A DNA stretch of 30,679 bases from a virus (taxonomy: Duplodnaviria; Heunggongvirae; Uroviricota; Caudoviricetes): positions 1-30,679 of IMG/VR virus record IMGVR_UViG_2802429237_000002, one strand, 5' to 3'. A model generated the notes under the pieces. The model was not told the origin of the DNA and did no database searches. It saw nothing but the letters and a program-made list of their open reading frames with translations. Positions 1,269-4,795 of this stretch are shown here, piece by piece (position 1 is the first letter of the stretch; each line of letters opens with the position of its first letter). A program made the translations under genes and the position numbers.

Positions 1269-1568
1269 TTACCTTTCCCGATAGGTATATAGTTCATCAT
1301 GTGCAACCTTGCGATTGCGATGTATTCCCATTTCTTTCTCTACGCGTATTGCTGCATTGCGTAATGCTCTTGAGGTCGCGACTTCTCTTGAACTTACATT
1401 TTTTAATGTAGCCGATTTAATGCAACGTTGAATTTGCCTCTGGATATACATCCGCTGGTCTGTCTGAGTCTCCTGACGATAATCCATCAGCACATCTTGC
1501 CAGCGAGCCGCAGCTCTGCGCCAAAGCCCTTTATTTTCAAGTTCTTCAGCTTTTTTATCTTTAACCAT
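1269..1568 (-). CDS. PerC-family-like transcriptional regulator (99 aa from the internal ATG)
   Basis: Motif EELENKGLWRRAAARWQDVL resembles the PerC/Pch signature as I recall it; ATG at 1568 preceded by AGGAG RBS (track ORF begins at an upstream GTG, 1583); sits in an AT-rich island. Confidence 0.45.
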   Translation of the reverse strand: MVKDKKAEELENKGLWRRAAARWQDVLMDYRQETQTDQRMYIQRQIQRCIKSATLKNVSSREVATSRALRNAAIRVEKEMGIHRNRKVAHDELYTYRER

Positions 1569-1594
1569 ACAGTCTCCTATCACACTAAATATTA

Positions 1595-1666: not shown

Positions 1667-1972
1667 ATGGTGGTGAAATTCAAGCCAGATGCCGTTATGC
1701 AACTCAACAGAAATAAGCTGTTGCTTTTTATCTCACTATTCATTTGTCTCATTCCCAGCTATACTCATTGTTCACACAACACAAAAGGCATAGAAATGAC
1801 AGTGTATGGCATATCAGAAAACAGTATTGTTCACTTACGTGAAAAAAATGGAGAATGGCTTGTGTTGCACATTATTAAAAATGGCGACATTACATATCAC
1901 CTCAAAAAAACAGATACAGATACAGACAAAGAAATGAACGTCACACTTCAGGATATTATCCCCAATAAATAA
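1667..1972 (+). CDS. Hypothetical exported or membrane protein (signal-peptide-like N-terminus)
   Basis: N-terminal region MQLNRNKLLLFISLFICLIPSYTHC has a charged n-region and hydrophobic core; very AT-rich codon usage suggests a laterally acquired moron; weak RBS, start uncertain (1667 or 1697). Confidence 0.4.
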   Translation: MVVKFKPDAVMQLNRNKLLLFISLFICLIPSYTHCSHNTKGIEMTVYGISENSIVHLREKNGEWLVLHIIKNGDITYHLKKTDTDTDKEMNVTLQDIIPNK

Positions 1973-2297: not shown

Positions 2298-2591
2298 TCA
2301 GTCATTACTGATAGCACCATAGCGTGAGCGGTAATTACGCAGGCGCGGGTCAATTTCAGGGAAGTGGGTATATGTGGCTTTGCGGAATGGTCGGATTGAT
2401 GTCTGGTAAATTCGCTCGCGTTCTTCTTTCTCTGCAAGCCATATACAATGGCGAAATTCCTTTTCCTCTTTCGTTTCCTGCGGTAGCGACATTATCAGGT
2501 CGTAGTTTTTTCTGAATTTATCCAGCACCTCCAATACGGAATTGCCGGAACAGCGGCGCGCGTCGTCCGCACCATATAGAGGCGCTGGCAT
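2298..2591 (-). CDS. Hypothetical protein (97 aa)
   Basis: ATG at 2591 preceded by AGGAG RBS; follows the exonuclease gene on the same strand. Confidence 0.5.
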
Positions 2592-2607
2592 GGTTTTCTC
2601 CTGTTGA

Positions 2608-3156
2608 TTATTTAGCTAACTTTTTCCAGATCGCTGAAACGTATTTGGCTTGGTGAATGGCATCATCAAGCGCGTTGTGGCGAGTTCCTTTGAATGGCAT
2701 ATCTCGCTTAGGGTCGAATCCTATTACCTTCCCAAGTTCGACGATTGTTCTTACGTCGCGGTCATTCCACCACTGCCACGGAACTGGCTGCCCTGTCAGC
2801 GAATAACTGTTGCGGAGAATAACGCAGTCAAATGATGCTCCATTCCCCCAAACCTGAACGAGTTTGTGGTTGGCGTTCTTTATGATGAATTCAGATAACC
2901 ATGAAAGAGCCGTTGAAAGCTCTTGAGTGTTGCTGGTTAGCGATTTTCTGGCTTCTTCACTCTGTTCCATCCACCATAAAATCGTTGAAGCGTCAGGACG
3001 TGCCCGATATCGCATTGATGACTCAAGCGAGATATTTACCGAGAACTCTTCTCCTGTTTCTCCGGTATTCGGGTCAAAGAATACCGCCCCAATAGAAATA
3101 ACTGGCGCGTATGGCCCGTTGCCCATTGTTTCAAGGTCAACCATTAAGTGATTCAT
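2608..3156 (-). CDS. DEDDh (DnaQ-like) 3'-5' exonuclease
   Basis: Exo I motif VDLETMG near the N-terminus and H-x4-D motif (HNALDDA) near the C-terminus; AAGGA RBS; part of the recombination module. Confidence 0.8.
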   Translation of the reverse strand: MNHLMVDLETMGNGPYAPVISIGAVFFDPNTGETGEEFSVNISLESSMRYRARPDASTILWWMEQSEEARKSLTSNTQELSTALSWLSEFIIKNANHKLVQVWGNGASFDCVILRNSYSLTGQPVPWQWWNDRDVRTIVELGKVIGFDPKRDMPFKGTRHNALDDAIHQAKYVSAIWKKLAK

Positions 3157-3164
3157 GTAAGTCC

Positions 3165-3680
3165 TTAAATTGCGTGAATAGCGTGACGAGGGAAGGGGAG
3201 AGTTACTGGTGCAAAGGGGATATCGTCGTCAAAATCCATAGGTGGTTCGCTGTGATTCCCTTGCTGCTGAGGTTGCTGTCTTTGTTGCTGACCGTTATTT
3301 CGCTGAGGTGAAGACTGTTCATTGCCTCCTTGCTTGCCACCAAGCATTTGCATGGTTCCACCAACGCCCACGATGACTTCGGTAGTGAACCGATCCTGTC
3401 CGCTTTGATCCTGCCATTTTCTTGTCCGCAATTTGCCTTCAAGATAAACCTCAGAGCCTTTTCGCAGATATTCGCTGGCAATTTCTGCCAGTTTCCCGCT
3501 CATTACCACACGGTGCCACTCCGTCTGCTCCTTTTGCTCTCCAGTTTGCTTATCACGCCATTGTTCTGACGTAGCAACGGTAAGGTTTGCAAATGCCGTT
3601 CCTGATGGTGAATATCTGATTTCTGGATCATGCCCAAGGCGACCAATAATGATCACCTTATTTACGCCTCTGCTTGCCAT
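3165..3680 (-). CDS. ssb: Single-stranded DNA-binding protein (SSB) with a C-terminal extension beyond the acidic tip
   Basis: OB-fold N-terminus ([21 protein letters not shown]...), Gly/Gln-rich linker and acidic [10 protein letters not shown] motif, followed by 15 extra residues ([15 protein letters not shown]) before the stop. Confidence 0.9.
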
Positions 3681-4388
3681 TTATGCCGCCTGTTTTAGTT
3701 CGTTAACTCTGATGTTCATTACCTGAACGCATTTAGCCTGCGCCTCCTCGTTGCCAGCCATTAATTGCCAGTCACGCTGATAACGCTCGATGAGTTTTTT
3801 CTTGTCAGTTTCTGTTGACGCATAATCGCTGAAGTCTTTCAGGATTTGTTCGCAGTCAACCGATGGAGATTTCTGGTTGGTATTTTCTGGTGATGGTTTG
3901 TTATCTGATGCTGGGATTGCCCATCCCGGCAGCGATGGAGGGAGCCAGTAAAATCCTGTTCCATCCTTCAGTTTTGCCCTGTGCCACCCCTGCTTTTTAT
4001 CGAGAGATGTTTGTGCGAAACCTTCCTCAAGGTTATACAGATACCGACCGATTCCCCACTGAACGGCAGCACGCTTCATTGCACCGGAACGACCACCTTT
4101 GACGGCTTCTACCTGCGTGTTTTCAGCAGCATCCCATTTGGTTACCCATTCGGAATCAATCTTGATTGATATGCCGCATTCAACTCCGCCGTTGTTGGGA
4201 ATATCGCGGTATTCATTGCGCCATCCTGCTTTGCCGCAAACATCGTCCAGGCGTTTCATGATTGCCCTGTTCGTGACATAAGCCAGCACCATAGCCCACA
4301 CTTTTCCATCGCGTGTTTTACCGCTTTGCTGTATTCGCCATTCGATATCTTCAGGGCTGAATGGCTCATCGAATTTATTCAAATCCAT
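3681..4388 (-). CDS. Rad52/Rad22-family single-strand annealing protein (SSAP)
   Basis: Blocks VLAYVTNRAIMKRLDDVCGKAGWRNEYRDI and GGRSGAMKRAAVQWGIGRYLY resemble Rad52 N-terminal-domain motifs; GAGGTGA RBS; sits between the ssb and kil/cIII-like genes. Confidence 0.7.
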   Translation of the reverse strand: MDLNKFDEPFSPEDIEWRIQQSGKTRDGKVWAMVLAYVTNRAIMKRLDDVCGKAGWRNEYRDIPNNGGVECGISIKIDSEWVTKWDAAENTQVEAVKGGRSGAMKRAAVQWGIGRYLYNLEEGFAQTSLDKKQGWHRAKLKDGTGFYWLPPSLPGWAIPASDNKPSPENTNQKSPSVDCEQILKDFSDYASTETDKKKLIERYQRDWQLMAGNEEAQAKCVQVMNIRVNELKQAA

Positions 4389-4396
4389 AATTCACC

Positions 4397-4567
4397 TCAG
4401 AATGGACATGGCCCAAGGAAATAACGCTGGTTTAATACTTCGACTCGGGACAAATTAAGGCATACCCGCATTCCTTCGCGGTCACCATTATGGCGATACC
4501 AGAGAGCTTTCTGCGTGTACATGCGTCTCTGTAACTTGCTCTCCTTCACTGTGGTTGCAAGTGACAT
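4397..4567 (-). CDS. Hypothetical small protein (56 aa)
   Basis: Hand-translated MSLATTVKESKLQRRMYTQKALWYRHNGDREGMRVCLNLSRVEVLNQRYFLGPCPF; strong RBS GAAGGAGATAT 6 nt before the ATG; not in the supplied track (under 60 aa). Confidence 0.35.
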   Translation of the reverse strand: MSLATTVKESKLQRRMYTQKALWYRHNGDREGMRVCLNLSRVEVLNQRYFLGPCPF

Positions 4568-4646
4568 GAATATCTCCTTCGTTACCGATTAATTCTTTCA
4601 TCTGACGAATGAATTCTTCGTCTGACCAGTTATCTGTAAAGCTCAT
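4488..4646 (-). CDS. Hypothetical small protein (52 aa), alternative frame overlapping 4397..4567
   Basis: Hand-translated MSFTDNWSDEEFIRQMKELIGNEGDIHV...; its ATG overlaps the stop of the Kil-like ORF (ATGA); overlaps the 56-aa ORF by about 80 nt out of frame, so at most one may be real. Confidence 0.3.
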   Translation of the reverse strand: MSFTDNWSDEEFIRQMKELIGNEGDIHVTCNHSEGEQVTETHVHAESSLVSP

Positions 4647-4795
4647 TTCCTGCGATACCATGGAAGGTTGATAGCTGATTTCATCGCTTTATTTGCTTCA
4701 AGCCACATTTTTGAATCACCAATAAATCTGGCTATTACTGCTTTGTTCTGTGCAGCACGAAGCATCTGGTGATTAATGGCTATTTCATTGCGCAT
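4643..4795 (-). CDS. kil: Kil-like small protein (50 aa; candidate cell-division inhibitor)
   Basis: Hand-translated MRNEIAINHQMLRAAQNKAVIARFIGDSKMWLEANKAMKSAINLPWYRRK; GGAGG RBS; FIGDxKM motif and position directly downstream of the cIII-like gene match lambda kil as recalled. Confidence 0.45.
   Translation of the reverse strand: MRNEIAINHQMLRAAQNKAVIARFIGDSKMWLEANKAMKSAINLPWYRRK

Follow-up and report, generated by a model that had tools for sequence, protein, structure and literature searches.

The window analyzed here, a 30,679-nucleotide stretch from a virus of the Caudoviricetes (IMG/VR record IMGVR_UViG_2802429237_000002), carries a compact group of recombination genes on its minus strand. 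Positions 2608 to 4388 are filled by exactly three tightly packed open reading frames (ORFs) of the ORF list, all of which are real genes and not chance ORFs. Together with their immediate neighbors, they comprise the following features:

2298..2591, minus strand: Abc2 anti-RecBCD protein, 97 aa, the next gene after the exonuclease (Pfam PF11043)
2604..3164, minus strand: exonuclease cassette, 561 nt, a clean insertion (pairwise blastn of ssb-abc2 segments against phage ECP1)
2608..3156, minus strand: predicted DEDDh (DnaQ-like) 3'-5' exonuclease, 182 aa, T4 DexA/Rv2179c-like family (PF16473)
3165..3680, minus strand: phage SSB, 171 aa, with an OB fold, a Q/P-rich linker, and the acidic tip DFDDDIPF (PF00436, TIGR00621)
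3168..3212, minus strand: 15-codon extension past the SSB DDDIPF tip (beyond the end of the NCBIfam profile)
3681..4388, minus strand: predicted single-strand annealing protein, Rad52/Sak family, 235 aa (Pfam PF04098, phrog_1097)
3684..3920, minus strand: C-terminal three-helix domain of the annealing protein, aa 157-235, common to P22 Erf (sequence identity)
3981..4379, minus strand: N-terminal Rad52-type annealing domain, aa 4-136 (Pfam envelope)
4397..4567, minus strand: small conserved ORF, 56 aa, phrog_1723, overlapping the phrog_2123 ORF by 80 nt in another frame
4488..4661, minus strand: small conserved ORF, 57 aa, phrog_2123, between kil and the annealing-protein gene, at the position of P22 arf

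The flanking layout is that of a lambdoid early-left region, with cI, N, ral, cIII, and kil upstream (profile matches) and DUF2737-like and xis-like genes downstream. As the spacers within the four-gene module measure 0, 8, and 16 nt, and as neither promoter-like sites (consensus scan) nor terminator-like sites were found on the minus strand from 4613 to 2298, the genes form one operon, in which the small ORFs, the Rad52-type annealing protein, the SSB, the DEDDh exonuclease, and Abc2 are transcribed leftward from PL as a single unit. Both small ORFs are also annotated in mEpX2 and Sf6. Neither was accepted as P22 Arf: the phrog_2123 ORF has only a 7-residue word in common with Arf, and the phrog_1723 ORF has no similarity to it.

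The 235-aa protein is predicted to be a Rad52/Sak-type annealing protein. It matches the Rad52_Rad22 profile (PF04098) with an E value of 5e-26 (91.9 bits, cutoff 20.3), bears the RefSeq name "Rad52/Rad22 family DNA repair protein," and has a core (aa 32-125) that is invariant among 32 homologues. When its AF2 model (pLDDT 84, with a low-confidence linker at aa 162-175 between the core and the C-terminal domain) is compared with the PDB, the sole significant matches are Mgm101 and human RAD52, both Rad52-family proteins, in agreement with a Rad52-like beta-beta-beta-alpha core. Their E values range from 3e-4 to 4e-3, and the TM scores are modest (0.3-0.5); sequence search detected no solved structure for this protein. 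Residues 157-235 are 63% identical to aa 134-205 of P22 Erf (E = 2e-30), and this Erf-like C-terminal domain is presumed to mediate interaction with a partner.

The ATG of the ssb gene directly abuts the annealing-protein stop codon TAA. Its product is assigned as an SSB by PF00436 (E = 2.1e-38, 131 bits, cutoff 26) and TIGR00621 (184.7 bits, cutoff 53.95). The DDDIPF motif occupies aa 151-156 and is followed by 15 further residues, so that the canonical SSB tip is not the free C terminus here. All NCBIfam SSB profile matches stop at residue 156 or before, and in Sf6 an HNH cassette is placed exactly at the site of this 15-residue extension.

For the 182-aa protein, a 3'-5' exonuclease of RNase H-like fold is predicted. 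The Rv2179c-like 3'-5' exonuclease profile (PF16473) is matched over its full length (1-177 of 177) with an E value of 5.5e-73 (244.9 bits, cutoff 27). The original prediction of a Rad52-type annealing protein, an SSB, and a DEDDh exonuclease is upheld for all three families by Pfam profile searches and models, and the DxE and H-x4-D motifs it named are present as D7-x-E9 and H160-x4-D165, to which D110 can be added as a catalytic residue. Each of these five residues is either invariant across 33-36 homologues or conserved in at least 90% of them. The AF2 model (pLDDT 93) confirms a DEDDh, RNase H-like fold, and its top PDB match in Foldseek is T4 DexA (E = 2.5e-12, TMq 0.79), followed by Cap18, RNase T, Orn/REXO2, and RNase AS. 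As a sequence search of the PDB likewise returns DexA (8KEL, E = 6.6e-14), T4 DexA is the closest solved relative by both sequence and fold. The two proteins share the DEDDh subfamily and have aligned catalytic residues (D7, E9, and D110 with DexA D7, E9, and D119; structures 8KEL/8KEN), and the equivalent of DexA W152 is kept. They are 25-27% identical by structural alignment and differ in genomic context, and the window exonuclease is 45 residues shorter, with neither the loops of DexA nor its tetramer residue D90. Closer homologues include the mEpX2 exonuclease (annotated as gp31), which is 99.5% identical, and proteins 57-87% identical in Escherichia, Salmonella, Klebsiella, Pectobacterium, Serratia, Providencia, and Photorhabdus. 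The invariance of the catalytic residues, together with this level of identity over seven genera, therefore indicates purifying selection on the exonuclease.

Placing the neighboring gene into context alters how the module is to be understood. The 97-aa protein matches Anti-RecBCD_p2 (PF11043) over its full length (E = 6e-63) and is 93% identical to P22 Abc2, with conservation of P68, the PpiB site whose significance is known for Abc2 (PMC9836394). The module had been set apart from the Erf/Abc system of P22, a contrast that does not stand when Abc2 is nearly the same and the annealing protein keeps the Erf C-terminal domain; with Abc2 adjacent and this similar, the module is P22-type and Abc2-dependent. 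It had also been described as showing neither an evident Gam-like gene nor a 5'-3' exonuclease gene. The second part is correct for the lambda Exo/YqaJ and RecE families, which gave no match in any ORF of the leftward operon. The first is not, since the Abc2 gene adjoins that of the exonuclease and a Gam analogue is thus present in the module. The idea that a 3'-5' exonuclease stands in for a 5'-3' exonuclease is likewise not sustained, as the P22 model assigns 5'-3' resection to co-opted RecBCD (PMC9836394, PMC5928155). As a separate observation, the 30.7 kb contain no Chi sites, compared with 0.75 expected; this fits an anti-RecBCD phage and is not significant.

The module is also already known. 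Phages mEpX2, mEp235, epsilon34, and g341c (the "ES18 functional type" with DnaQ nuclease) have the same four genes annotated in the same order and operon position, the DNA identity of the four-gene block being 92.8% with mEpX2 and mEp235 and 86% with epsilon34 and g341c. A module type consisting of anti-RecBCD protein, SSB, nuclease, and annealing protein was described for 25 phages by Zheng, Casjens, Davidson, Amundsen, and Smith (Genome Res 2025; PMC12315714), and the window module belongs to this lambdoid Rec type. The same study noted DnaQ-like nucleases in lambdoid recombination modules. With GenBank annotation in several phages and a class description from 2025, the module itself therefore adds nothing new, and "non-canonical" in the sense of new does not apply. 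No substantive difference from the modules of the four phages was found, and the window presents another allele in a P22-like (IME10/Sf6-like) virion background.

Comparison with other phage systems helps to define what is shared and what is distinct. The P22 module (arf-erf-abc1-abc2) occupies the same place between kil/cIII and the int-proximal genes, but the annealing core in the window is of Rad52 type and not of Erf type, and ssb and the exonuclease gene are found at the abc1 position, without Abc1 or a recognizable Arf. HK620 (hkaM-sak4-ssb-abc2; PMC5928155) has the same order of annealing protein, cognate SSB, and Abc2, and experiments in that phage demonstrated that the SSB acidic tail stimulates the cognate annealing protein and recombineering (Hutinet et al. 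2018, PMC5928155). Its annealing protein, however, is a Sak4 with a RecA core, its SSB is non-homologous, and the exonuclease is absent. Lambda Red (exo-bet-gam) and Rac RecET are similarly annealing-based phage modules of the early-left operon with an anti-RecBCD function, whereas the window module is without a 5'-3' exonuclease gene and has its own SSB; furthermore, lambda Gam blocks RecBCD, while Abc2 co-opts it.

The exonuclease gene is a discrete unit within this arrangement. The 561-nt cassette is bounded by the ssb stop codon on one side and the abc2 ribosome-binding site on the other, and in phages ECP1 and HK75 this backbone occurs with the ssb-abc2 slot empty. In Sf6 the slot holds an HNH gene and no exonuclease, and the states observed overall are empty, exonuclease, HNH, and HNH plus exonuclease. 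The exonuclease is therefore an optional cassette, dispensable for the module architecture and missing from many sibling phages. Among 5426 complete E. coli genomes, 140 have the four-gene block; the annealing-protein gene alone is found in 392 E. coli genomes, about 250 of which are without the block. Because of these genomes, and because phages with an empty slot are viable, any contribution of the exonuclease is accessory.

It could be speculated that the exonuclease is simply a neutral or selfish cassette in a permissive slot, comparable to the HNH homing-endonuclease genes and contributing nothing to the module. The clean insertion, the hypervariable slot, and the presence of the full block in only 140 of the 392 genomes with the annealing-protein gene would all be in line with this. 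We nevertheless regard it as fairly unlikely, as the catalytic residues and the sequence are under purifying selection, the protein has no endonuclease or other mobility function, and its junction with ssb is conserved. At this junction, 8 nt separate the ssb stop codon from the exonuclease ATG, and an AGGA Shine-Dalgarno sequence overlaps the stop codon (TAAGGACTTACATG), so that the earlier description of the two genes as "translationally linked" is right in a loose sense. The junction with its Shine-Dalgarno sequence is kept in Pectobacterium, Pantoea, and Klebsiella loci, and a conserved ribosome-binding junction with ssb points to co-expression of the exonuclease.

This linkage extends beyond the phages with Abc2. 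In each of the 11 close-homologue contexts tallied, the window included, an SSB gene immediately precedes that of the exonuclease (181-184 aa, at least 64% identical), which starts 8-54 nt behind it. In one of the 11, that of Photorhabdus, family matches are absent for the two upstream genes and the SSB is recognized only by its acidic ...SPF tail. Upstream of the pair lies a Rad52, Erf, AAA_24, or Sak4-like protein, and the SSBs themselves come from two unrelated families. The modules of E. coli and Salmonella phages are the only ones in which Abc2 was seen to follow, and prophages of Pectobacterium, Pantoea, and Klebsiella have the trio of annealing protein, SSB, and exonuclease without a recognizable Abc2. 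In two Casjensviridae-like phages, a Gp2.5-like SSB/annealing gene is immediately upstream of the exonuclease. A universal link of the exonuclease to Rec modules was considered and rejected, as distant relatives are found near int/xis without an SSB, near DNA polymerases or helicases, or fused into larger proteins.

The synteny of ssb and the exonuclease gene suggests a role in SSB-linked trimming of 3' ends, although the adjacency could also reflect co-transfer and not joint function. An extended form of this idea, which we put forward as possible but doubtful, is that the two genes form a conserved functional pair shuttling among unrelated phage recombination modules (Rad52, Erf, Sak4, and Gp2.5-like). 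Here the DEDDh nuclease would correspond, on the phage side, to Exo I; recruited to SSB-coated DNA, it would trim 3' ends and set the tolerance of annealing recombination for terminal heterology.

When these observations are combined, the window can be proposed to come from a temperate, P22-like E. coli phage and to encode its homologous-recombination (Rec) module, which would operate in four steps, and we lean slightly toward this reading as a whole. First, Abc2 would bind RecC and convert host RecBCD into a Chi-blind helicase with a 5'-strand nuclease, leaving 3' single-stranded tails; we infer this for the window Abc2 because it is 93% identical to the P22 protein, for which the mechanism was demonstrated. 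Second, the phage SSB would coat the 3' tails, as expected from its family membership. Third, the Rad52-type protein may anneal complementary strands, its Erf-like C-terminal domain probably bringing it to the RecBCD-Abc2 product or to SSB. Fourth, the DEDDh exonuclease, which is not the resection enzyme, may act as a trimmer of 3' ends on SSB-bound DNA. By clearing away excess or non-homologous 3' tails, it might allow the extension or ligation of annealed intermediates; alternatively, it might turn 3' overhangs into blunt ends onto which RecBCD-Abc2 could load. The identity of the module and the resection step by Abc2 and RecBCD are, taken jointly, highly probable; the specific role of the exonuclease in SSB-coupled trimming or blunting is offered as a tentative proposal that falls short of even likelihood.

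That proposal is modeled on E. coli Exo I with SSB and on T4 DexA in the repair of double-strand breaks in intron homing, as the 3'-5' exonuclease activity of DexA contributes to recombination-based intron homing (PMC12153337). Exo I (SbcB) is a 3'-5' ssDNA exonuclease of the DEDDh class that is functionally coupled to SSB, and gene adjacency leads us to propose a functional analogy with the window protein; the sequence relationship between the two is at superfamily level only. The masking of the DDDIPF tip by the 15-residue extension, which the window SSB has beyond its tip, argues against a canonical mode of tip binding here.

It is conceivable that the exonuclease instead serves as an HREX-type weapon between phages; similar to EcD, it would degrade the 5hmC DNA of T-even phages and spare unmodified DNA, and it would have no part in recombination. 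Plasmid-borne EcD, a DexA homologue of E. coli, protects E. coli from T4, and the same study states that among bacteria DexA homologues occur most often in Escherichia, Citrobacter, and Klebsiella (PMC12153337), a distribution that the exonuclease family matches. At the residue level, W130 corresponds to DexA W152, D90 falls in a gap, and DexA D169 aligns with F147, next to D148, in a stretch where the alignment is uncertain. Even so, such a function is unlikely here. As part of the repressed PL operon, 8 nt behind ssb and with no promoter-like site of its own found, the gene should not be expressed by a lysogen. Its strict placement after ssb in the 11 contexts would be unexpected for a defense gene, and PADLOC defense families give only weak, generic DEDDh matches. 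EcD itself (HAK9828821.1) starts with MIDTET according to the cloning primer and is thus a different protein; no protein with this start was present among the 120 best exonuclease homologues and all fetched loci, and exact scans with a 23-mer and a 20-mer of the EcD reverse primer returned nothing or chance matches (an unrelated IMG/VR contig and an Acetatifactor MAG).

A substrate of RNA or small nucleotides could also be considered, with roles in host mRNA decay, nanoRNA clearance, or the destruction of nucleotide defense signals. The founding member of PF16473 is Rv2179c/RNase AS, Pfam names the family after an exoribonuclease, and Orn, REXO2, RNase AS, and Cap18, which is associated with CBASS, are all among the fold matches. 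We judge this quite improbable, as the closest solved relative is a DNA exonuclease and all of the close-clade neighborhoods tallied are those of DNA recombination. A self-sufficient trio along the lines envisaged originally, in which the 3'-5' exonuclease would replace the resection nuclease and yield 5' tails for the annealing protein, would accommodate both an operon devoid of lambda Exo or RecE genes and the prophage trios that have no recognizable Abc2, yet it is highly improbable with an adjacent Abc2 so close to the characterized P22 protein and with the same backbone functioning in nature without the exonuclease. DexA-like enzymes of such size are not known as processive dsDNA resection enzymes.

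The reading of the exonuclease as an SSB-coupled trimmer bears on a wider puzzle, namely, why 3'-5' exonucleases are present in recombination modules when such enzymes normally antagonize recombination; those acting on single strands usually inhibit it in E. coli (PMC12315714). The synteny with ssb narrows this puzzle to an experimentally testable hypothesis of SSB-coupled end processing, and phages that share this backbone, some carrying the cassette and others not, provide natural isogenic comparisons. If the exonuclease and SSB do form a functional pair that moves among modules, with the nuclease setting the tolerance for terminal heterology, this enzyme would be among the factors that determine phage mosaicism and could usefully supplement dsDNA recombineering.

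The interval 2608-4388 is filled exactly by three back-to-back ORFs on the minus strand, and the observation of an annealing protein, an SSB and an exonuclease is confirmed. The original prediction did not list the gene that adjoins the exonuclease on its downstream side, which encodes Abc2. From the ORF list and Pfam, the module reads as follows, the families of the first three proteins being concordant in PHROGs and NCBIfam.

Genes of the recombination module
3681-4388, minus strand: annealing protein, 235 aa; Rad52_Rad22, E 5e-26, better than the curated cutoff
3165-3680, minus strand: SSB, 171 aa; Pfam SSB, E 2e-38
2608-3156, minus strand: DEDDh 3'-5' exonuclease, 182 aa; Rv2179c-like family, E 5.5e-73, match spanning the full length
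2298-2591, minus strand: Abc2, directly downstream of the exonuclease; Anti-RecBCD_p2, E 6e-63; 93% identity to characterised P22 Abc2, P68 included

This recombination module is already known. Its 2.8-kb region shows 92.8% identity to mEpX2 and mEp235 and 86% to epsilon34 and g341c, whose records annotate a Rad52-family or Erf-like protein, an SSB, an exonuclease and Abc2; in prophages of E. coli, RefSeq likewise annotates all four. In a survey of 325 lambdoid phages, Zheng, Casjens, Davidson, Amundsen and Smith (Genome Res 2025; PMC12315714) defined a module type of anti-RecBCD protein, SSB, nuclease and annealing protein in 25 phages, and singled out the DnaQ gene of epsilon34 as probably a genuine member. 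The interpretation as a non-canonical three-gene module is therefore partly supported: the genes and their families are borne out, Abc2 was overlooked, and the module type had been published before.

Immediately upstream of the module, two short conserved ORFs take the place that arf occupies in P22; kil, cIII, ral, N and the repressor gene follow further upstream. Downstream lie a DUF2737-like gene, further small genes and an xis-like gene. The spacers between module genes are 0, 8 and 16 nt, and a consensus scan of the coding strand found no promoter-like or terminator-like sites inside the module. Together with the adjacent abc2, these features identify the block as the recombination module in the PL operon of a P22-like phage, one whose virion genes are similar to those of IME10, HZ41 and Sf6. 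The two small ORFs (4397-4567 and 4488-4661, minus strand) share 80 nt in different reading frames; PHROGs calls both 'recombinase', a label whose basis is not visible, and neither is similar to P22 Arf. Elsewhere in the window, positions 1001-2000 have a GC content of 0.37 against about 0.47 nearby, a possible moron region holding two ORFs.

1269-1583, minus strand: PerC-like transcriptional activator
1667-1972, plus strand: orphan ORF that matches no family

In the P22 model, Abc2 binds RecC, which renders RecBCD blind to Chi and up-regulates its 5'-strand nuclease activity, and Abc2 is proposed to load the phage recombinase in place of RecA (PMC9836394; PMC5928155). Wilkinson et al. explain the apparent lack of an exonuclease of their own in phages with Abc2 by the co-opted RecBCD, which supplies it (PMC9836394; PMC5928155). 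The adjacent, closely similar Abc2 therefore explains why neither a lambda Exo nor a RecE gene is present; there is no need for the DEDDh enzyme to stand in for one, and homology shows the module to be an Abc2-dependent annealing system. No Chi site (GCTGGTGG) occurs on either strand of the 30.7 kb, an absence that fits the published pattern for anti-RecBCD phages, though it is not significant, only 0.75 being expected by chance.

The annealing protein is a chimera of two parts.

aa 4-136: Rad52-type core
3684-3920, minus strand, aa 157-235: Erf-like C-terminal domain, 63% identity to the C-terminal domain of P22 Erf

No sequence similarity is detectable between this core and that of Erf, and the only significant structure matches of the model (pLDDT 84) are Mgm101 and human RAD52, both of the Rad52 family. 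Common to two annealing proteins with dissimilar cores, the Erf-like domain is plausibly a partner-contact domain, and its union with a Rad52-type core amounts to the shuffling of a domain presumed to bind partners. The SSB continues for 15 residues (3168-3212, minus strand) beyond its DDDIPF tip, itself normally C-terminal. This extension is also found in mEpX2, ECP1 and one Klebsiella prophage, and is absent in seven other SSBs compared. In Sf6 (locus L002, 2696-3185), an HNH endonuclease cassette is placed exactly between DIPF and the extension, so that the Sf6 SSB terminates in ...DSDIPF and the HNH protein in the extension's 15 residues. Masking of the tip should alter the choice of host partners for the phage SSB.

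Homology likewise shows the nuclease to be a DexA-family DEDDh enzyme. The predicted motifs D7-x-E9 and H160-x4-D165 are both present, the third acidic residue is D110, and all five residues are invariant or nearly so in alignments of 33-36 homologues. T4 DexA is the best solved-structure match of the AlphaFold model (pLDDT 93; E 2.5e-12, TMq 0.79), followed by Cap18, RNase T, Orn/REXO2 and RNase AS, and the sole match in a PDB sequence search, so the DEDDh fold assignment stands.

Pairwise comparison with phage ECP1 reveals a clean 561-nt insertion at 2604-3164, between the ssb stop codon and the abc2 ribosome-binding site, with identical flanks. The exonuclease is an optional cassette, in a slot whose content varies among related phages.

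Content of the slot between ssb and abc2
Empty: ECP1, HK75, IME10, N7
Exonuclease: mEpX2, mEp235, epsilon34
HNH endonuclease: Sf6
HNH endonuclease and exonuclease: CurroJimenez_Bas106

Among 5426 complete E. coli genomes, the annealing-protein gene occurs in 392, the full-length exonuclease gene in 152 and the four-gene block in 140; 1105 have any match to the four-gene query, the sampled weaker ones being mostly abc2 alone. That the exonuclease is merely a neutral or selfish cassette seems unlikely.

Close homologues (at least 64% identity, 181-184 aa) were tallied in 11 distinct contexts, of which the window and the mEpX2/epsilon34 group count as two. In each of the 11, the exonuclease gene starts 8-54 nt past an SSB gene, whose product has an acidic ...D-x-PF end or, in Photorhabdus, a ...SPF tail. 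The T(A/G)AGGAT...ATG junction is kept across genera; its Shine-Dalgarno sequence overlaps the stop codon of ssb. The annealing protein upstream varies, and among these contexts only the phage modules of E. coli and Salmonella have Abc2 downstream.

Annealing protein upstream of the exonuclease
Rad52-type: Escherichia, Salmonella phages, Pectobacterium, Serratia, Enterobacter
Erf: Pantoea/Mixta, Klebsiella and others
AAA_24 (Sak4-like)
Sak4-like with an unrelated HK620-type SSB: Providencia, probably Photorhabdus

In the Photorhabdus prophage (L028), the DEDDh exonuclease is preceded, two genes upstream, by a second predicted exonuclease-like gene (508-1194; Pfam DNA_pol_B_exo2). The intervening genes (218 and 200 aa) have no family hit and may be a Sak4-like/SSB pair, the putative SSB being recognised solely by the acidic ...SPF tail of the second. 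A Klebsiella prophage (L032) encodes a DNA polymerase III theta homologue (HOT-like; 4250-4507) some 1.2 kb downstream from its DEDDh exonuclease gene, the two sharing one leftward operon; theta is a partner of epsilon (DnaQ).

A sister clade (186-190 aa, 57-63% identity) occupies the int/xis end of the operon, with no SSB or annealing protein adjacent (L018-L021, L040-L041, L008). Two of four sampled contexts, Salmonella and Klebsiella prophages, place it after a DndB-like gene, the former with a gene resembling dNMP phosphatase (phrog_318) in between; the other two have different neighbours, as in Serratia phage OS31, where it adjoins xis/int. In two E. coli prophages (L005 and L006, 5973-8444), an 823-aa 'exonuclease' adjoining xis/int has the same DEDDh domain as its C-terminal 170 residues, the first 640 having no match in Pfam. 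Two Casjensviridae-like phages encode, in order, a Cas4-like exonuclease, a Gp2.5-like SSB/annealing protein, a DEDDh exonuclease and a DNA polymerase. Remote homologues adjoin polymerases, helicases or integrases, and distant, at least partial DNA matches to the exonuclease gene occur in 4160 of the 5426 E. coli genomes, at up to eight places per genome. With distant homologues in varied contexts and the close clade after ssb in all 11 contexts, the family as a whole is one of general phage DEDDh nucleases, with the close clade specifically linked to ssb.

It can tentatively be proposed that the exonuclease processes 3' ends of SSB-bound DNA. Acting on 3' single-stranded DNA bound by SSB, it would remove 3' tails that are non-homologous or in excess, allowing annealed intermediates to serve as primers for synthesis or to be ligated; in another version, it may blunt 3' overhangs for entry of RecBCD-Abc2. 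There are two precedents. In E. coli, Exo I is a partner of SSB. In T4, the 3'-5' activity of DexA contributes to recombination-based intron homing (PMC12153337). An HREX-type nuclease against 5hmC phages (PMC12153337) is quite unlikely: a kept W130 and a missing D90 would favour it, but the gene sits in a repressed operon and is linked to ssb, and the E. coli DexA homologue EcD is a different protein. Activity directed at RNA or nucleotides is very unlikely, and self-sufficiency of the three genes, as originally modelled, is scarcely credible. The synteny of ssb and the exonuclease gene provides a concrete, testable lead to the function of the nuclease.
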